From Macrostomum lignano (Eukaryota), in the NCBI GenBank assembly GCA_002269645.1, contig NIVC01003234.1:45621-109620 (forward strand): DNA of 64,000 nucleotides. The letters are read 5' to 3'. Of the stretch, positions 18,862 through 64,000 are shown piece after piece. A model generated the notes under the pieces. The model was not told the origin of the DNA. It searched no databases and worked only from the letters and a program-made list of their open reading frames with translations. The translations under genes and the position numbers were made by a program. Within the stretch, counting starts at the first letter, position 1, and every line of letters starts with the position of its first letter.

Positions 18862-19069
18862 GTGAGAGCCGCTCCTGTTCCTGCTCGGCAACTTAAGCCG
18901 TTTCTGATAGCAGAAAAGAACAAAAAAGAAGATTATTCCGCATGGCCGCGGCCGGGAAAGTTGAGCCTCTGACTCAGCCGGCTCGCTGCGGAACTGAGAA
19001 TGAAATTGATTTGCAAACTGCGCTTTGATGAAGCCTCAGGCCGCCTCGCCTCCGCCTGCCCGCCCCCAG

Positions 19070-19688
19070 AGCTGCAGTCCGTGCTGTGCCGCATCAGGGA
19101 GGGCGGCGCCGCCCCGGAGCCGCTCGGCCCGCAGCCGCCGCCGCCGCTGACGGGCATGCAGCCCGCGCCCCCGACATCCGCTGGCATTGGCCCGACCGGC
19201 TTCGGGGAAGATGCTTTCGAAGCCGGAGATGGCGATGACAGCGGCGAGGCCGGCAGCCTCCACACCGCCGGCGGTGGCTGCTGCAGCGTCCTCGGCGTCG
19301 ACAGCTGCGTCCTCGCAGACGAAGGCTCCGCCCAGCCGCTGGGCGCTGACAGTCCAGACGCTGATGAGGGCAACAAGACTCTCTTTGGCGGCGAGGACGC
19401 CATCGGTGTCAAAGACCGCGCAGGTGACGCAGCCGACGGTGCTGAACGAGCCGCGGCAGCTGATGGGCCGATCGACCTGCGTGTCGCGACCGTCGCCAGC
19501 GAGGAGGTGGCACCGAAGGAGGATGCGATGATGGAGAAGACGGAAGCGGCTCCTGCGATGGAAGACGGTGATGAGCTTTTAGAAGAGCATCAGCAGCAGC
19601 AGCAACAGCAGCAGCAACAGCAGACAGAAAGGCCAGATGACTTCCAGGCTGGGGACATCACTGTGCCAGAGTACACGGCGGTGAAAAG
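19070..19688 (+). CDS. MYT1: MYT1-like exon: Pro/acidic/Gln-rich linker
   Basis: gcccccag acceptor (phase 1), open frame of ORF 19000..20706, donor AAG|GTGGGC at 19689. Confidence 0.8.
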
Positions 19689-19693
19689 GTGGG

Positions 19694-20365
<672 letters not shown>

Positions 20366-20387
20366 TAATTTCCCTGCATTCCCGCAG

Positions 20388-20702
20388 CTACTCGACCCAC
20401 CGCAGGGAGAAGGAGCTGCTGCACTGCCCGACCCCCGGATGCGACGGCTCCGGGCACGTGCTCGGGAGCTACTCCAGCCATCGCTCCTTGTCCGGCTGTC
20501 CGAGGGCCGACCGCAGCCTGGTTCTGCTGCACCACGTTGAGCAAAAATGCCCGACGCCCGGCTGCGACGGCTCTGGCCACGCCACCGGCAACTACAGCTC
20601 GCACCGGTCTCTGTCCGGCTGTCCGAGGGCCCGCGGCGCCAAGAGGAGCGCCGCTGCGGTCGCCGCCTCGACTGTCGCAAACAGACAGGGCGACAGCGGC
20701 AG
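20388..20702 (+). CDS. MYT1: MYT1-like exon with C2HC fingers 3 and 4 ([11 protein letters not shown]...HRSLSGCP, twice)
   Basis: ttcccgcag acceptor, CAG|GTGAGG donor; two canonical fingers. Confidence 0.97.
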
Positions 20703-20790
20703 GTGAGGCCCGCAAGTCCCTCTTTAAAGCCCTCACAATACTACTGCTCCTACTGAGTAGTCAATTGCTGCATTCAAATTCCACCCGCAG

Positions 20791-34931: not shown

Positions 34932-35653
34932 ATGAGCGGCAGTGTTCAACTGTTCCATAGTCAAGGCAGCGGCCTGATCAATCCCCCCACAGCACAGCAG
35001 CAGAAACTCAGCAGCGGAGGCAGCCAGCTCGGCAGACATCTGAAGCGCCTGATCGGGCAGCGCCAGCAGCGCGGCAGCAAAAAGCAACGCCAGCAACAGC
35101 CGAACCACCTATTCATGCAGCCGCAGGTGTACGTTGTGGGCAGCCCGAACATCAAGTCGCCATTCCTGCGCATCGCTCACATTAGCGACACGTGCGAGGT
35201 TGACGACAAAGGCGCCTCCTCCATCTACGAGGCCGACGTGCTGGTGCACTGTGGCAACCTCAACAACTACCAGTTCAGCAAGCACTTCTTCAAGGATAGC
35301 GAATTCCATAGCCAGATCAAGGCCATCGATGCGTTCTTTGCCAAGATGCCTCACAAGTACAAAATCTTCGTGGCCGGGCCCAACGAAATCTTCGACGGGG
35401 AGTCGCGCGAAAAGCTTCAGGCGCTGCTGCCCAACTGCATCTACCTGCAGGACTCCAGCTGCGTCATCGAGGGCGTCCGGTTCTACGGCACGCCCTGGAC
35501 CGTCAGCAGGCGCGGCATCGACGGCCGAGGCTTCGTGAAGTCGCACGCCGAGCTCAAAACAATTTGGTCGAACATCCCGGACGACGTTGATGTGTTCGTG
35601 GCACCGTCGATTCCCACGAATTCCATGTACGAGGAGCTCGTTGCGAGGATCAG
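34932..35653 (+). CDS. MPPED2: MPPED1/2-like calcineurin-fold metallophosphoesterase homolog, exon 1 (probable pseudoenzyme)
   Basis: RIAHISDT, DVLVHCG, PHKYKIFVAG, LLPNCIYLQDS..IEGVRFYGTPW and W..IP.DVDV align with MPPED2; donor CAG|GTGAGA at 35654. Confidence 0.92.
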
Positions 35654-35744
35654 GTGAGAGTTGCCCTCCCTACAGCCTTGAAGCTCAGCTACCCCAAGCC
35701 TGTACTTGCATGGCTAAGCTGGCAAAACCAACTCGAACCCGCAG

Positions 35745-41189: not shown

Positions 41190-41550
41190 GGCAGGTCAGT
41201 AGGCAGGTCAGTAGGTAGATAAGCAGGCAAGTAGGCAGGTCAGTAGGTAGATAAGCAGGCAAGTAGGCAGGTCAGTAGGTAGATAAGCAGGCAAGTAGGC
41301 AGGTCAGTAGGTAGATAAGCAGGCAAGTAGGCAGGTCAGTAGGTAGATAAGCAGGCAAGTAGGCAGGTCAGTAGGTAGATAAGCAGGCAAGTAGGCAGGT
41401 CAGTAGGTAGATAAGCAGGCAAGTAGGCAGGTCAGTATTTATGTAGGTAAGTCGCAAGTAGGTGGGCAAGTAGGCAAGCAAGTAGGTGGGCAAGTAGGCA
41501 AGAAAGTAGGTGGGCAAGTAGGCAAGCAAGTAGGTGGGCAAGTAGGCAAG
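41190..41550. repeat. 32-bp (GCAGGCAAGTAGGCAGGTCAGTAGGTAGATAA) then 24-bp minisatellite
   Basis: Tandem copies next to the LRRK donor at 41561. Confidence 0.93.
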
Positions 41551-41561
41551 CCGCTACTTAC

Positions 41562-41957
41562 TTCGGTGATGCAGGCACAAGTCGGCTCCGCCATGGCCCC
41601 CACAAAGTCGGGGATGCCGCCGCCGTCTCTCTCTTCAGCCGCTGCCTCCACCGGCGCCTCGGTCCGCGCTGCCCCGTCGTTTGGCAGGGCGATGAACCTC
41701 TCCAAGGCCCAGCGGCTGTGCGTCTTCATGGCAACGCGAATGCCAGCCGCGGTGGGCCGGGCGCCGGGGCTGAGACGCCAGCACTGCTGGGCCAGCTGGC
41801 CCATGAAGGCGGCCTGCTCGGCCTCCTGAACTGTGAACTCGGGGTGCCCGCCGTCCAGCACCACCTTGGTGAGGTTCTCGCTGCTGGGCAGCTTGCTGAA
41901 CGGCCGCTCGCCGCAGATGAGCTCGTAGAGCACCATGCCGAAGGAGTACACGTCCAC
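41562..41957 (-). CDS. LRRK1: LRRK-like exon: kinase subdomains IX-XI (DVYSFGMVLYELICGERPF...CW...RPTA) and start of WD40-like domain
   Basis: ttcag acceptor, GAA|GTAAGT donor, phase 0/0. Confidence 0.95.
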
Positions 41958-54092: not shown

Positions 54093-54370
54093 TCTATCTC
54101 TACATATAAAAATCAAAACTCTGTCTGTGTGTATGTGTGTCTGTGTACAAATTACTTCGCTATGGACTACCAAACCGCTCAACCAAATTACACCAAATTT
54201 TGCACCCACCCTAAATTCACTACAGAAAGTGTCATAGGCTACCTTAAAATTTCCTAAATTTGAGTCTTCCTACTTAAAAGTGCAAAAAAACTGCCCAAAA
54301 TGCGCGATTTTTTTACTAAATCCTCCATAGCGCCGCTCCACTGCTACCAATCCTCTTCAAATTTGACACA
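54093..54370 (+). mobile_element. Helitron-like (Lep1-type non-autonomous) 5' terminus; 3' end not located
   Basis: TC...TACATATAAAA, then a TGTC/TGTG microsatellite, AAACCGCTCAACCAAAT..CCAAATTTTG, and CATAGGCTAC at 54233-54242. This order matches animal non-autonomous Helitron 5' ends as I recall them; not database-verified. Confidence 0.6.
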
Positions 54371-55319
54371 ATTAATCTTGAACTATTTCGACACAATCGT
54401 GCACTTTTAAAGTTAGGCTGTTTTTTGTCAGCGAGGCAGCCACCCCAACCTCCGCCTGCCTCTCTTTCCCGAACTGGGCCTGGTGTGTAAAGGGGGTTAT
54501 AAAAATTGACTTAACTTTCGGCTGCCATAGGTTTGCTCTACGTGAAGCCATTGACTTGAAACTTGACTCAATTCTTCTTTGACTCATTCACTGTCTAAAT
54601 ATAAAGTCTCAACTCTGTAACTCAATCAGAACAGAAACTGTAAGCATGTGAAATTTGTCTGCTTTTTCTGTTGTTTGTGCCGCTCACTCACTCAATCCCC
54701 CAGCCCAGACAAAGGGTCAGGCTATAGGGCTCAGTGTACATAGCGAATGTACAGTGTTTTGGAATAACTTTTTAATAGCCTTCTCCGCACCCCCGCGTGT
54801 GGAGAGGCTACGTTTGGTCATGACAGTTTAGTGAGAGATTCAAACCACTGTCCTCTGTATAGACATTAGACAAGCGTGCAGCAGTTTATCAGTGGATGGA
54901 TGGCAATTGGCAAATCAACAAGGCGATGCGGCATGGTTTGTAAAAATAGCGAAAAATTAATGAATAACCGATTACATGCAATCCTACTAAATTAGTTACA
55001 CCATGAAAATTTTAACATTAAGATTCGCATAAGGTACTTTAAAATTTAAATGGCCTCCTAAGAAATGCGTATGTCCTTGGTTGTTAGACTGCTGCAGACT
55101 GTGGTGGTGGAGGAGAATGGAGATACACAAATTCCTCTCAGGGCTGCTAATTGGTCAGAAAGATGACGTGATTAAAGCATGAGAAATGATAACAACCGTG
55201 ATAGTACTACATCCCACAAACTAGCTTTCGAAGCAGGGATCGGCAGATTTTTATCTCAAAGGCCAGATAAAGAATCCAACTCATGGCTGCGGGCCAGATG
55301 AGAGTGAAAAGAAAAAGGA

Positions 55320-55810
55320 ATAGACTATTAGAAAGGGAGGAGGGGCGAGAGGGGGATAAGAGAAAGATAGAAGATAACAGCAGAGACGAGGGGGTTGAGG
55401 AGAGAGCAGAGAATATGGGACGAAGAAGCGAAAGGAGGGGAGAGAGAAGTGAGAGGAAATAGTAGAGGTGAGAAGATGGAGAGAGAAGAGGGGAGAGATG
55501 AGACAGATGATCGATGAGAGAGGAGAGTATAGAAGAGTGAGAAGAGATAAGAGTTGAGAGAACAGAGAGGCAGATGAGAGAGGATCGAGAGAAGAGATTA
55601 GAAAGGATAGAGAAGAGAGGAGATAAGAGGGGGAGAGAGGGAGAGAGAGGAGTGAGAAGAGAGGAGATAAGAGATTAGAGAGAGAGTTGAGAAAGAAGAG
55701 AGGAAAAAGGAGAGATGATAGAGTAAAGGGAAGAGGAGGAGAGAGGAAAGAGATGAGATTGTAGAGATGAGAGAGATGAAAGGAAAGATGAGAGAGTAGA
55801 GATGAGATAA
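55320..55810. repeat. Polypurine (GA-rich) low-complexity tract
   Basis: Almost exclusively G/A on the + strand. Confidence 0.9.
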
Positions 55811-56007
55811 CTACTAAGGGATTCCGTAAGTGTTGATTTTGGAGGTGAGGTGGGTGTCAACCCTCCTCGCCTCTCATTGGCTGGCGCCCCGATCACTAGG
55901 TGATCGATACCCGTATCGATATCGGCGCTCGGCGCGCGCGCGCGCGCCGCAGGCGCCAAGCGCCGCAGGCGACCCTCCCAGCCGCAGGCGCACCTACCGA
56001 TATTAGA

Positions 56008-56063
56008 TCCCAATAAATCAATCAGATCCCAAATCAATCAGATCCCAAATCAATCAGATCCCA
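56008..56063. repeat. 16-bp direct repeat (AATCAATCAGATCCCA), 3 copies
   Basis: Visible tandem copies. Confidence 0.9.
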
Positions 56064-56814
56064 AGCGCACCCACCCGAGCCGCAGGCGCCCATGCAGCAG
56101 GCGCCCCTCCCCGCCGCACGCGCCCTCCCCCGACATGTATGCCGCAGGCGCCCTCCCCGTCTCAGGCGCCCCTCCCGATATGTATGCGCACTCTCCCTAT
56201 ATGTACACCGATATGTATGCAGCAGGCGCCCCGAGTGTACACTCCCCCGATATGTGTGTACACCGATATGTAGTCATCGATACGGGCCTCTTTCCCTCTC
56301 TCACCTACATCTCAACTAGCGAAATCGAACCCAGGTCGCGCCCATACTAGGACACTACACGGTTGTGGGGTATAGGGAGCGAGAAGTTTCAACCCTAACG
56401 CTGACGCAGCCCTGTACAGTGAGAGTGTACGGGCAGAGAGGGGTGGCGCGGACAGAGAACCAGCCACTAGGTTGTTATACTGTTGAAGCATAGGGAGCGA
56501 GAAGTTTTAACCCCGATGCTGACGCAGCCCTGTACACTGAGCGTGTACGGGCAGAGGGTGGGTGGAAAGAGATGTGAATAACACAGCCTGCTGCAGGAGC
56601 CGGATAGAGAGGCGCATGCTAGGACAGAGAGGTAGTGTGAGTCACACACACACCCCACAGAGAAAGCCATACAGAGGATAGAGAGCTCCCTCCCCAGTTG
56701 CAGGGGACAGAGAGGCAGGCTGGGTATGCAGGGGCATGCGAACCGTCAAGGGGCCACGCGAGGATAGAGTGGAGGAGCAGAGATGTGTTTGGACAGAGAG
56801 CCAGCCACGTGTGC

Positions 56815-59800
56815 GTAGTGTGAGGGAACAGAAACATATGGAGCAGGAGGGAGATAGGAAGCAAACGCGCAGGGTAAGGGAGCCACACAGGGCGGTACAG
56901 TGAGACACGGGCAGGGGTGGAGCCGTGCGTGGACAGAGCTGAACGGCACGGTCAGCTGCAGGAATAGGATGATAGAGAGGCGCGGAGGGGGACAGAGAGC
57001 AGTGTGCAGGGGTAGGCAGCCACGCAGGCTGGGGAACAGAGAGGCGCGTGTCAGCCAGTTGCAGCCCGGGACAGAGAAGTATGAAGGGGGCCTGGGACAG
57101 AGTTCCGAGCAAGGCACAGAGGTAGGGTCCTGTAGCTATGTATAGGCAGGGAGCCACGCGAGGGCAGGACAGGGGAGCAGACATGCAAGTTGCATGCAAG
57201 GCCAGAGAGGTGTGCGCGGAGGGAGACAGAGAGCAGTGTGTAGGGGTAGGTAACAGCAAACTTTAGTAGCGGCGCGTGCGGGGACGGAGAAACCAGTCAG
57301 AGCATACAGAGACGTTACAGAGAGGTACACAAGCAGAGACCAAAGCGAGCAGAGCACATGTGTAGGGACAGAGACGTGAGGGAGAATCGACCAAAACACG
57401 CTATGTATTTTCAAAAGTTGGTTTTAGTGCAACATGTTTAATAGTGGGTAGTATAATAGTATGTACATAGTAGGTATAATAGTAGTAATAATAGTAAGCA
57501 TATTAGCCCAAAAGGTAGACTAAAACAGGCTAAACTGTGTGTACGCATCCTCATCACCCCACAAGCCCCCTCTCCCGCCAGACTCACTCTACCAAACCCT
57601 CCTGTATTGCTGCATGAAGGAAAATATAGTGTAAAAATACAGATCTTAACCGTCAGACCGCTGAAATCAGGGCACACTAGAGGGGGTTTCGGGGTCTGCA
57701 TGCTCTATGTAAGCTGCTTGAGGAGGTTCCAAGGGCGTTGTGAGGGTTTCCATTATGTTTTGAAAAAAACTAGGGCTTAAATACAACGTTTTATTCAAAA
57801 GTAGGTTATTTTAATGAAATAGCTGACACAATCATTGTCGAGAGTAGAAATTTTTATAAGAAACCAGGCATTTTAGCAAAAATAAACCTTCAAACCACAT
57901 AAAATTGAATAAAAAGCAGACATTTTCAATTATAAACCGCAAGTATTTTAATAGAAAAGTAAGCAAACAAGGCACAAAACCAGCAAATTTTACCTTTTTA
58001 TTTTAATGTTACTGATAAGGTAGAGAGTAGAAACTTGTGAGCTGTACGGAGTTAGAAAGTATTAACCATTATGTATCGTATGAATTATTAGTTCAGTACC
58101 AGCCATTGGTCAAGCGAGCATTTATGAAGTTATTACGAGTGATGAAGGGATAGAGAGCTATATACAGGAAGACAGTATCCTTCTAAACCACCACGAACAG
58201 ATTGCTAATAGAGATAAGCTTTGTCTGTGTGCAGTATGAGTAAGCGAAGGCGGGGCAAATACTTTTCCACATGCCGGACAGAACAGTATTGTGCTAGGAT
58301 TTCTCTCGAAATCGCGGTACGTTACTAGTTTTTATCACACCATCCAGATGCGTCAACTAGTCAGCAGTAGTCATTTATATGTTATTAGAACTTACAAACC
58401 CAGGTCAAGTAAATATTACAAAGAGTATATTACGTACACACGCCAACTCCGAATACCAAGCCATACTAGTCTACTTGCAGTGCTCCTGGAGGGAAGGGAC
58501 GGCGGGGTGTACATCCGGCAGGGTGGGCGTCCAGCGAGTGTACATCTGACAGGATGGGTGTTCAGCAAGTGTACATCTGACAGGGTGGGCGTTCAGCAAG
58601 TGTACCTTCAGCGTCGAGTAGGTGTACACCCGTCAGTGGGAACTCAGCCCCTCCCACCAATGTCGTGTGCATGCGGTTAGTCAGTATAGTGGTGGGGTAG
58701 ACGGTGCAGGAAGGAAACCCAGATGCTGACGCTGCCCTGTACAGCGAGCAACCAGCCCTCCTGTAGCAGGAGGGGGACAGAGAGTGCGTGGAGGCAGTAG
58801 GAGATAGAGGACGCTACCCGGCATGTCGCAGCACGCGGCGCGGGACAGAGAGGCAGTGTGTAAGTCACCCCCGCGAGGGACAGAGAGCTACCCTGGCAGG
58901 AGGCGCGGGACAGAGAGGCGGTGAATCACACCCCACGGAGAGAGCCGTACAACGAGCTTCCCCACCCGAGTCCGGTAAATATTACAGAGTATTACGTGCA
59001 CACGCCAGCCCTGAATACCAAGCCATACTAGTCTACCTGCAGTGCTCCCAGAGGGAAGGGATGGTCAGGAGTTACACACCAAGAATGCATTCATACAAAG
59101 AGTACACAACTCGAGCCAGACACCAAGTCACAGTCTACTTACAGTAGAGATGGTAGATTAATAGCAAGATTATATTACAATTAGACCTCCCTAGCACATG
59201 AGGAGTGAAATTCAATAATAATTGAATTCAATAATAATACAACATTTAGACGTAGTAATTTAATTACAAAATACCACTAACACTGAGCCAACGAATTGTA
59301 GGTTACAAAGGAGTTGTCACTCATATGGAAAGTCAGTATAATGCAGGTGTATATTATTAAAACATAGACAAAAACGATGCAGACGTATATACACACTATT
59401 GATTTTGTACATGTACATTTCGGCATATTACCACACATCGCAGGCACATATTATATATCGGGGGATAGGTTAAAATACACACATCGTAGATGTAGAAGCA
59501 GACACAATGCAGGAAAATTATGATACGAGTGTACATATTAGTGCGTAAAAGTATCATATTATGACACCCTGTAGCACATATTGACATAATGCAGGGGAAA
59601 ATATTGACAGAAATAGTACACAATTGTAGAGGTAACAACCCGCCAACTAGTAAGGACATCCAGCACTTGTTCAGGTTTTTATTATTTCGAGACGAGTGTC
59701 ATGCCCCCCCGCAAGAGATCTTATCAGAAATTTGTTGAACTCCACTGCAACTCTCCCCAGAGCCTCCAAATGTGAGTTTTTAACCCAGGGTCGAGTACAA

Positions 59801-62800
59801 AGGACCCGCCCACTCTTAACCCCAAGGGGTGATCGTAGCGGAGACCAAGTACAGTGCGGACGGAGAGGGGTAACAGAAAGCGCTGCATCAGACCGCAGGG
59901 CTGCATTCCTCCCCCGAGGTAGGCGCGTCAGCTCCCACTCCTCATTTAACCATCAAGTAAACTAAAGAAGTCAAGCAGAAAGCCTTACAATCACCCGCAA
60001 CCAGCACAAGTAAGAGTACTTTCCACTAGAGAGCCATAGTGCAAGATTCGCGAGCCAAGTTGAAGAAGCACACCAAATTACACTAAAGACATATGTATTA
60101 AAAAGCATACAGGCACCTCTACAAAAACACAGTATGTACCGATTAAAGTTGCTTTTGGTGCAGTGTATTTAATAAAAAGCAGGTACCTAACACAAAAGTA
60201 GGCATCAATGCAGTGCACGGGCTAAACTGTATTTACAAACGCAGGGCAACGAACTACACACAATGTAGCGCATAGACATAATTGTACGCATAAATGTACG
60301 CAATTTCCGGTATATAGGACCAAATGTACACAATGTACACAAACACACACACACACACACACACTCAGGCGCATCCTGCAGCGCATCCTGCAGCACCGAT
60401 CGCCGCAGGCGATGGCGCCATCGGCAGGAAGCTCTTGCTGTGAATACGCCTGAGTGTGTGTGTGTGTGTGTGTGTTTGTGTACATTGTGTACATTTGGTC
60501 CTATATACCGGAAATTGCGTACATTTATGCGTACAATTATGTCTATGCGCTACATTGTGTGTAGTTCGTTGCCCTGCGTTTGTAAATACAGTTTAGCCCG
60601 TGCACTGCATTGATGCCTACTTTTGTGTTAGGTACCAGCTTTTTATTAAATACACTGCACCAAAAGCAACTTTAATCGGTACATACTGTGTTTTTGTAGA
60701 GGTGCCGGTATGCTTTTTAATACATATGTCTTTAGTGTAATTTGGTGTGCTTCTTCAACTTGGCTCGCGAATCTTGCACTATGGCTCTCTAGTGGAAAGT
60801 ACTCTTACTTGTGCTGGTTGCGGGTGATTGTAAGGCTTTCTGCTTGACTTCTTTAGTTTACTTGATGGTTAAATGAGGAGTGGGAGCTGACGCGCCTACC
60901 TCGGGGGAGGAATGCAGCCCTGCGGTCTGATGCAGCGCTTTCTGTTACCCCTCTCCGTCCGCACTGTACTTGGTCTCCGCTACGATCACCCCTTGGGGTT
61001 AAGAGTGGGCGGGTCCTTTGTACTCGACCCTGGGTTAAAAACTCACATTTGGAGGCTCTGGGGAGAGTTGCAGTGGAGTTCAACAAATTTCTGATAAGAT
61101 CTCTTGCGGGGGGCATGACACTCGTCTCGAAATAATAAAAACCTGAACAAGTGCTGGATGTCCTTACTAGTTGGCGGGTTGTTACCTCTACAATTGTGTA
61201 CTATTTCTGTCAATATTTTCCCCTGCATTATGTCAATATGTGCTACAGGGTGTCATAATATGATACTTTTACGCACTAATATGTACACTCGTATCATAAT
61301 TTTCCTGCATTGTGTCTGCTTCTACATCTACGATGTGTGTATTTTAACCTATCCCCCGATATATAATATGTGCCTGCGATGTGTGGTAATATGCCGAAAT
61401 GTACATGTACAAAATCAATAGTGTGTATATACGTCTGCATCGTTTTTGTCTATGTTTTAATAATATACACCTGCATTATACTGACTTTCCATATGAGTGA
61501 CAACTCCTTTGTAACCTACAATTCGTTGGCTCAGTGTTAGTGGTATTTTGTAATTAAATTACTACGTCTAAATGTTGTATTATTATTGAATTCAATTATT
61601 ATTGAATTTCACTCCTCATGTGCTAGGGAGGTCTAATTGTAATATAATCTTGCTATTAATCTACCATCTCTACTGTAAGTAGACTGTGACTTGGTGTCTG
61701 GCTCGAGTTGTGTACTCTTTGTATGAATGCATTCTTGTGTGTAACTCCTGACCATCCCTTCCCTCTGGGAGCACTGCAGGTAGACTAGTATGGCTTGGTA
61801 TTCAGGGCTGGCGTGTGCACGTAATACTCTGTAATATTTACCGGACTCGGGTGGGGAAGCTCGTTGTACGGCTCTCTCCGTGGGGTGTGATTCACCGCCT
61901 CTCTGTCCCGCGCCTCCTGCCAGGGTAGCTCTCTGTCCTCCGCGGGGGTGACTTACACACTGCCTCTCTGTCCCGCGCCGCGTGCTGCGACATGCCGGGT
62001 AGCGTCCTCTATCTCCTACTGCCTCCACGCACTCTCTGTCCCCCTCCTGCTACAGGAGGGCTGGTTGCTCGCTGTACAGGGCAGCGTCAGCATCTGGGTT
62101 TCCTTCCTGCACCGTCTACCCCACCACTATACTGACTAACCGCATGCACACGACATTGGTGGGAGGGGCTGAGTTCCCACTGACGGGTGTACACCTACTC
62201 GACGCTGAAGGTACACTTGCTGAACGCCCACCCTGTCAGATGTACACTTGCTGAACACCCATCCTGTCAGATGTACACTCGCTGGACGCCCACCCTGCCG
62301 GATGTACACCCCGCCGTCCCTTCCCTCCAGGAGCACTGCAAGTAGACTAGTATGGCTTGGTATTCGGAGTTGGCGTGTGTACGTAATATACTCTTTGTAA
62401 TATTTACTTGACCTGGGTTTGTAAGTTCTAATAACATATAAATGACTACTGCTGACTAGTTGACGCATCTGGATGGTGTGATAAAAACTAGTAACGTACG
62501 CGCGATTTCGAGAGAAATCCTAGCACAATACTGTTCTGTCCGGCATGTGGAAAAGTATTTGCCCCGCCTTCGCTTACTCATACTGCACACAGACAAAGCT
62601 TATCTCTATTAGCAATCTGTTCGTGGTGGTTTAGAAGGATACTGTCTTCCTGTATATAGCTCTCTATCCCTTCATCACTCGTAATAACTTCATAAATGCT
62701 CGCTTGACCAATGGCTGGTACTGAACTAATAATTCATACGATACATAATGGTTAATACTTTCTAACTCCGTACAGCTCACAAGTTTCTACTCTCTACCTT

Positions 62801-64000
62801 ATCAGTAACATTAAAATAAAAAGGTAAAATTTGCTGGTTTTGTGCCTTGTTTGCTTACTTTTCTATTAAAATACTTGCGGTTTATAATTGAAAATGTCTG
62901 CTTTTTATTCAATTTTATGTGGTTTGAAGGTTTATTTTTGCTAAAATGCCTGGTTTCTTATAAAAATTTCTACTCTCGACAATGATTGTGTCAGCTATTT
63001 CATTAAAATAACCTACTTTTGAATAAAACGTTGTATTTAAGCCCTAGTTTTTTTCAAAACATAATGGAAACCCTCACAACGCCCTTGGAACCTCCTCAAG
63101 CAGCTTACATAGAGCATGCAGACCCCGAAACCCCCTCTAGTGTGCCCTGATTTCAGCGGTCTGACGGTTAAGATCTGTATTTTTACACTATATTTTCCTT
63201 CATGCAGCAATACAGGAGGGTTTGGTAGAGTGAGTCTGGCGGGAGAGGGGCTTGTGGGGTGATGAGGATGCGTACACACAGTTTAGCCTGTTTTAGTCTA
63301 CCTTTTGGGCTAATATGCTTACTATTATTACTACTATTATACCTACTATGTACATACTATTATACTACCCACTATTATTAAACATGTTGCACTAAAACCA
63401 ACTTTTGAAAATACATAGCGTGTTTTGGTCGATTCTCCCTCACGTCTCTGTCCCTACACATGTGCTCTGCTCGCTTTGGTCTCTGCTTGTGTACCTCTCT
63501 GTAACGTCTCTGTATGCTCTGACTGGTTTCTCCGTCCCCGCACGCGCCGCTACTAAAGTTTGCTGTTACCTACCCCTACACACTGCTCTCTGTCTCCCTC
63601 CGCGCACACCTCTCTGGCCTTGCATGCAACTTGCATGTCTGCTCCCTGTCCTGCCCTCGCGTGGTCCCTGCCTATACATAGCTACAGGACCCTACCTCTG
63701 TGCCTTGCTCGGAACTCTGTCCCAGGCCCCCCTTCATACTTCTCTGTCCCGGGCTGCAACTGGCTGACACGCGCCTCTCTGTTCCCCAGCCTGCGTGGCT
63801 GCCTACCCTGCACATGCTCTCTGTCCCCCTCCGCGCCTCTCTATCATCCTATTCCTGCAGCTGACCGTGCCGTTCAGCTCTGTCCACGCACGGCTCCACC
63901 CCTGCCCGTGTCTCACTGTACCGCCCTGTGTGGCTCCCTTACCCTGCGCGTTTGCTTCCTATCTCCCTCCTGCTCCATATGTTTCTGTTCCTCACACTAC
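56815..64000. repeat. Giant inverted repeat: left arm 56815-60371, 75-bp spacer, right arm 60447 to beyond 64000
   Basis: Mirror positions sum to about 120816-120818; the ORF track has mirrored pairs (59396..59659- / 61158..61421+; 58677..58868- / 61948..62139+); the last 27 nt of the window reverse-complement 56815-56842. Confidence 0.98.

Follow-up and report, generated by a model that had tools for sequence, protein, structure and literature searches.

The asymmetric spacer at positions 60372-60446 of the window, which is the whole 64,000-nucleotide stretch of Macrostomum lignano DNA analysed here, is the centre of a palindromic element of about 9 kb that starts at window position 55810. 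We consider it fairly probable that this spacer is the fixed centre of a gene-less, Polinton-type palindrome acting as a snap-back satellite to a polymerase-only relative whose ends it shares. Pairing between the arms extends from 56815 to the window end, a stretch of 3.56 kb with 4 substitutions and 11 gap openings, and the contig that contains the window (C3234) stops inside the right arm. The same locus is present in reverse on contig C2944, which matches the window at 99.7% over 10.1 kb, left flank included, and holds the whole element as a single palindrome of 9,207 bp with the same hexamer on both sides. The element comprises the following features.

55804-55809, no strand: left copy of the 6-bp target-site duplication (TSD), GAGATA (TATCTC on both sides in C2944)
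55810-55816, + strand: invariant terminus ACTACTA with the (ACT)2 end motif; 0% pairwise difference in 25 copies
55817-55836, + strand: hypervariable end cassette, occupying nt 8-27; the 25 copies have 18 variants of it and differ pairwise by 46.6% on average
55837-55866, + strand: conserved subterminal core, nt 28-57, common to all of the end family; 199 exact genome matches (control 0), pairwise difference 1.7%
55940-56225, + strand: subterminal repeats with CCGCAGG (in the arm, 6 on the + strand and 0 on the - strand), shared with the class B TIR
55810-60371, + strand: left arm, 4.56 kb, non-coding, with 16% internal direct duplications
60337-60364, + strand: (CA)n tract at the inner end of the left arm, with a (TG)n counterpart at 60454-60481; its length differs among copies
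60372-60446, no strand: asymmetric apex spacer, 75 bp, axis at 60409
60369-60392, apex: 12-mer in two tandem copies
60399-60413, apex: mini-hairpin with a GCA loop, ATCGCC-GCA-GGCGAT
60410-60423, apex: perfect 14-bp palindrome
60386-60391 and 60424-60429, apex: enclosing pair TCCTGC/GCAGGA
60447-64000, - strand: right arm, broken off where contig C3234 ends; C2944 supplies roughly a further 1 kb, along with the right end and the TSD

No ATG-initiated frame longer than 180 aa was found in the arm, and the two longest frames had no Pfam match. The arm was covered by reads of four runs presumed to be RNA, among which no GT..AG joint was seen. The flank at 54097-55806 is a repeat with a GA-rich tract, and the copy of the element on contig C3377 sits inside a related repeat that is 77-82% alike to this flank.

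Every motif listed in an earlier sequence-only reading of this DNA was found where that reading had placed it, and its view that the spacer is not random received modest support. Among 5,000 dinucleotide shuffles of the spacer, a palindrome as long occurred in 120, a triloop stem as long in 275 and both in 5, these features having been picked post hoc. The fold does not add to this, since the 69-nt loop folded no better than its shuffles (z -0.63 and -1.69), whereas the strong values obtained for the 119-nt fold around the apex (z -7.8/-10.1) arise because the arms contribute the pairing. The branched T- or Y-shaped fold that had been proposed is indeed among the predicted structures, as one of many near-equal ones (MFE frequency 0.06 for the + strand loop). 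In addition, the CCGCAGG within the apex mini-hairpin is the motif that is repeated near the element ends on one strand only, while the TIRs of canonical Polintons hold it once or twice. The only Rfam match, of mir-3149 to the CA/TG hairpin, was rejected, as its 55 bits lie below the family's 100-bit threshold.

The spacer belongs to a genome-wide family. A 30-mer from the apex had 30 exact matches in the genome (control 0), some of them in redundant contigs, and a looser end pattern had 233 (control 4). The insertion set consisted of 25 complete, non-redundant, apex-bearing insertions, after exclusion of five redundant contigs, the rearranged C201, C843 and C1283, and nine copies with one end only in the sequence retrieved. 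The length of these insertions ranges from 7.5 to 9.4 kb with a median of 8.8 kb, their arms are about 4.4 kb long, and all 25 have the ends 5'-(ACT)2...(AGT)2-3'. An exact 6-bp TSD bounds 24 of them, and all 25 duplications are distinct, the remaining one fitting if the left end is allowed one extra ACT, which is the outcome that slide-back priming would give. When 38 apexes were aligned, they showed a single orientation relative to their own closing stem and few variants; some lineages carry symmetric changes that reach the closing stem, and the apex is not visibly more conserved than the arms. Three rearranged copies have their breakpoints at the mini-hairpin or at the spacer edges. Apparent extra 'segments' on C558 and C190 were discarded, since they are insertions of a gypsy retrotransposon and of a mariner into deleted copies.

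Matches to PF03175 (pPolB) lie within elements of about 9.4 kb, here called class B, that have the ends of the palindrome, TIRs of about 890 bp and 6-bp TSDs. Palindrome and class B have only the first ~300 bp of the arm in common, at 85-98% similarity. Six polymerase motifs occur with conserved spacing in 11 of 12 class B copies, spread over several frames, and the gaps, which are the same across copies, look like introns. The largest class B frame shows 61% identity to an ACTACG-ended family and 25-29% identity to PF03175 proteins elsewhere; it gave no tblastn match to four canonical Polinton polymerases of this genome, and no relative of the polymerase was found among the viral contigs searched. 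The ends and TSDs of class B, its conserved polymerase motifs and the cassettes that it has in common with the palindrome make it a candidate helper. The ACTACG-ended relative is represented by an element of 10.4 kb at C1263:48014-58456 (L120-L121) with 370-bp TIRs and a PC4-like ORF, and no integrase was seen in its 10.4 kb.

The palindrome itself carries no retroviral-like integrase, ATPase or capsid gene, and no intrinsic gene of these kinds was detected in 100 end-bearing loci (of the 233 pattern matches) searched by tblastn with the ORFs of two canonical Polintons; 7 of the 100 loci did match proteins of canonical Polintons, the matches lying in flanking DNA, in short fragments or in nested elements with AGTAGT ends. 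The genome is rich in integrase-bearing canonical Polintons, and those whose ends were read all begin with AGTAGT and not ACTACT: ten integrase loci were read, and all 8 with a detected TIR end in AGTAGT. Integrase searches, the examination of 25 odd ends and a pooled tblastn yielded no integrase or capsid partner for ACTACT ends.

The two arms of a copy are nearly identical to each other and considerably less so to the arms of other copies, with a median substitution distance of 0.07% between the arms of one copy vs 1.6% between copies. Minor alleles occurred in both arms 2,567 times and in one arm 181 times, counted over all alignment columns, misaligned ones included. In a tree, 16 of the 25 copies formed arm pairs, and the copies that did not were placed among near-identical copies or were recombinant. 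Polishing may have equalised the arms of assembled copies, and redundant contigs of one locus conflict at several arm sites, so that differences near 0.1% are partly noise. With up to 1 difference allowed, the cassettes at the two ends of a copy agree in all 25 palindromes vs 9 of 13 polymerase elements, discordant cassettes being found in 0/25 and 4/13, respectively (p=0.01, in the set with C271x swapped for C1607). This concordance is not an effect of polishing, because unique flanks anchor the ends. Moreover, four identical end cassettes are common to palindrome and class B elements. The cassette appears to be modular, with blocks of about 9, 4 and 6 nt in many combinations and a fixed length between invariant sequences.

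Close to the loop the pattern is different. In a subfamily of seven insertions, two mismatches located ~25 and ~66 nt outside the spacer lie on the same side in 7/7, and they persisted within this subfamily over a period in which several cassettes and, among six copies compared, six symmetric substitutions arose. A folded single strand predicts homogenisation of arms and ends with escape near the loop; this is the pattern observed, and it speaks for the snap-back model.

Protein-primed strand-displacement replication is established in adenovirus and phi29 and is assumed for Polintons. In the palindrome, we infer that a protein-primed polymerase would begin at the (ACT)n end and displace one strand. 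Being fully palindromic, the displaced strand would then fold up into a 4.6-kb hairpin whose loop is the 75-nt spacer and whose paired ends would restore a duplex origin. Within this hairpin, fold-back copying with a turn close to the loop, or else mismatch repair, could equalise the arms and both cassettes, mismatches adjoining the loop would escape this equalisation, and an integrase supplied in trans by a putative donor would insert the duplex. The analysis, which covered assembled contigs, showed no extrachromosomal, hairpin or protein-linked form. The ends and TSDs suggest that the palindrome may be mobilised in trans by Polinton polymerase and integrase. The apex is probably where copying turns and where rearrangements concentrate, and not a telomere that is nicked and resolved. 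A broader possibility, which we put forward only tentatively, is a multipartite system of Polinton type, with a stable, gene-less snap-back satellite as the parasite of a polymerase-only replicon. In such a system the apex would be a selected fold-back signal, packaging would hold the length at ~9 kb (like that of the helper), and helper and parasite would go on exchanging a hypervariable origin cassette. If true, a hairpin genome of the defective-interfering kind would have turned into a heritable family of transposons.

The strongest competitor of the snap-back satellite, unlikely but with several observations in its favour, is an ordinary non-autonomous transposon of the foldback type, in which one template switch gave rise to the family, the spacer is a functionless frozen junction, copying takes place in duplex form, and arm-to-arm gene conversion in chromosomal donors keeps the arms alike. 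The apex that folds no better than shuffles agrees with such an origin, as do four palindromic copies without the apex (C100, C176, C1944 and C1197), each with its own breakpoint. The copy on C660 points the same way, as its arms differ by 1.2% and one of them is partly converted to another subfamily, and so may an inherited asymmetry 1 kb from the apex: at ~1,040 nt, some assemblies show two asymmetric sites in a pair of sister insertions, and strict fold-back at every round is therefore doubtful. Besides, a fold-back derivative of a canonical Polinton exists, which indicates that such palindromes arise readily. Against an ordinary foldback element stand the ends and cassettes held in common with a pPolB element, the fact that the two cassettes of a copy agree more often in palindromes than in elements with TIRs, and the near lack of inherited asymmetries away from the apex in the seven-copy subfamily.

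It is considerably less probable that the apex is the hairpin telomere of a linear replicon of the parvovirus or poxvirus style, nicked and resolved into flip and flop forms, with the genomic copies as integrated dimers. The sequence-only reading had likened the apex to such virus-like telomeres, and part of this stands, since the apex is real, repeated and tied to a virus-like replicon; it lies, however, in the middle of the element, with the true ends 4.6 kb away on each side. An asymmetric loop with small internal hairpins and perfect arms on either side is what a telomere would offer, and a head-to-head dimer would have this appearance, but the arm holds no ORF for a Rep or a resolvase, and the complete copies are all dimers while copies of monomer length have irregular breakpoints. 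Both orientations had been anticipated among genomic copies, and a single one was found in the 7/7 insertions with arm markers, although these markers (~25 and ~66 nt from the spacer) lie near the loop and could invert along with it. With identical outer arms, the flip and flop forms cannot be told apart, being one molecule, and the orientation test therefore has no hold on genomic copies. The sole apparent flip, at one arm site, was dismissed as assembly noise, as redundant contigs of that locus are inconsistent. We infer that the apex would act as a hairpin loop solely in single-stranded DNA that has folded back.

An assembly or library artefact, whether a fold-back chimeric read or an adapter, is hardly credible: the window's contig does terminate inside an arm, and the C201 and C843 loci have an inverted flank duplication that resembles misassembly, but the identical spacer is present at 30 places with different flanks and 25 different TSDs, the copies show subfamily structure, arm sequence is found in runs from 7 studies, and the TSD-bounded copies refute this origin, which upholds the earlier rejection of a SMRTbell adapter and disposes of a template-switch chimera.

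The snap-back satellite proposed here has counterparts in several known systems. The palindrome is like Polintons/Mavericks in the 6-bp TSD and in a short tandem end motif suited to jumping-back priming (PMC8097293; 10.1101/2023.08.22.554363), and its relative with the same ends encodes a PF03175 polymerase. Vertebrate Mavericks have 6-bp TSDs and ends of the types (AGT)2//(ACT)2, (AG)3//(CT)3 or (AC)3A//T(GT)3, which are linked there to jumping-back priming (PMC8097293). The (ACT)2//(AGT)2 ends of the palindrome are of a similar kind and fall outside the three types listed there (PMC8097293). Unlike Polintons, which have 13-25 kb and TIRs of 46-1,500 bp, the palindrome measures 9 kb, is one whole inverted repeat with 4.6-kb arms, and lacks genes, including a pPolB of its own. 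In its workings it matches both a non-autonomous Polinton and a snap-back defective genome; judged by its size and its lack of genes, it falls outside the Polintons.

Copy-back defective interfering genomes have one end and its adjacent sequence mirrored about a turning point and depend on a helper. Foldback transposons such as Drosophila FB and Tetris have long, non-coding inverted arms with internal repeats and a small centre. The palindrome resembles the latter in its long inverted non-coding arms with internal repeats and its small centre, but its ends and TSD tie it to a protein-primed polymerase element, not to a DDE cut-and-paste family, and it has a hypervariable end cassette. In AAV vectors, hairpin-induced template switching produces self-complementary (snap-back) truncated genomes (PMC7397707). 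The palindrome shares with snap-back AAV and copy-back genomes the mirrored end and adjacent sequence, a structured turning point and the need for helper enzymes. Snap-back AAV and copy-back genomes are transient by-products, whereas the palindrome is stable, heritable and integrating, with subfamilies and one fixed apex.

The palindrome, the pPolB element and further gene-poor families have an end in common. This recalls bidnaviruses and the Vesanto virus, which have several molecules with matching termini, one of them encoding pPolB, and possible satellite segments (PMC8502044, PMC8363768). In contrast to these viruses, all forms found here are integrated with 6-bp TSDs, the palindrome is non-coding and fully palindromic, and no capsid or integrase segment with ACTACT ends was found in 100 of 233 loci searched with two query elements. 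A pPolB with TIRs and without integrase, at 10 loci, is described for C. elegans in a preprint (10.1101/2024.01.15.575659 or 10.1101/2023.08.22.554363).

The main-text literature searched showed no fully palindromic Polinton-type family and no description of Polintons in Macrostomum lignano. Non-autonomous Polintons are reportedly known from Kapitonov and Jurka in 2006 or from Repbase reports. The non-autonomous class as such is probably known already; novelty would lie in the complete palindromic form, the type of end, the cassette and a partner that has only a polymerase. Passages of further sources likewise describe neither a fully palindromic family of Polinton type nor Polintons in this species (PMC6431247, PMC3014272, PMC11161782, 10.1101/2024.01.15.575659, 10.1101/2023.08.22.554363). 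Polinton replication has so far been inferred almost entirely from gene content, and a young, multi-copy, gene-less palindrome would represent a sequence record of a replication intermediate. The palindrome also brings a further end motif, an end cassette that is shuffled rapidly and a probable pair of parasite and helper, and the family accounts for a class of giant palindromes where this assembly breaks.

Other elements with related ends were also observed. Mini elements of 145-1,300 bp have the same ends (C493, L263:75-219; C670, L198:9277-9739; L168; L185), and the one of 145 bp has at its centre a 12-nt match to the apex mini-hairpin region. Three more families combine the same end core with unrelated interiors (C96/C95/C1380, corresponding to L167/L166/L204; L192/L194/L195; L193/L207), one of which has an ORF with F5/8 type C lectin domains. 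Among AGTAGT-ended Polintons, a family of 10.7-12.9 kb has an intact integrase (L210-L225), and in most of its 8 copies the polymerase region is short or fragmentary. Canonical Polinton sequence lies within three ACTACT-ended elements, and three ACTACT-ended elements lie in canonical Polinton genes (the nesting loci being C106 (L146), C271 (L139/L142), C382 (L163), C1944 (L133), C2932 (L188) and C1157 (L201)); shared replication sites may be the cause of this mutual nesting. The fold-back derivative of an AGTAGT-ended Polinton (C3189:41271-55822 and C2301; L170-L173) consists of the first 8.6 kb followed by the mirror of the first 6 kb, with integrase on both arms and without polymerase. Its two contigs are 99.7% alike over 14.5 kb, may be one locus, and both stop inside an arm. 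Elsewhere in the window, we take 19000-20706, 34932-35657 and 41439-41936 to be host-like coding pieces, labelled from their motifs: presumably two C2HC-type zinc fingers in a frame that a perfect (CTA)224 run interrupts, one frame resembling a metallophosphoesterase and a fragment resembling a kinase.
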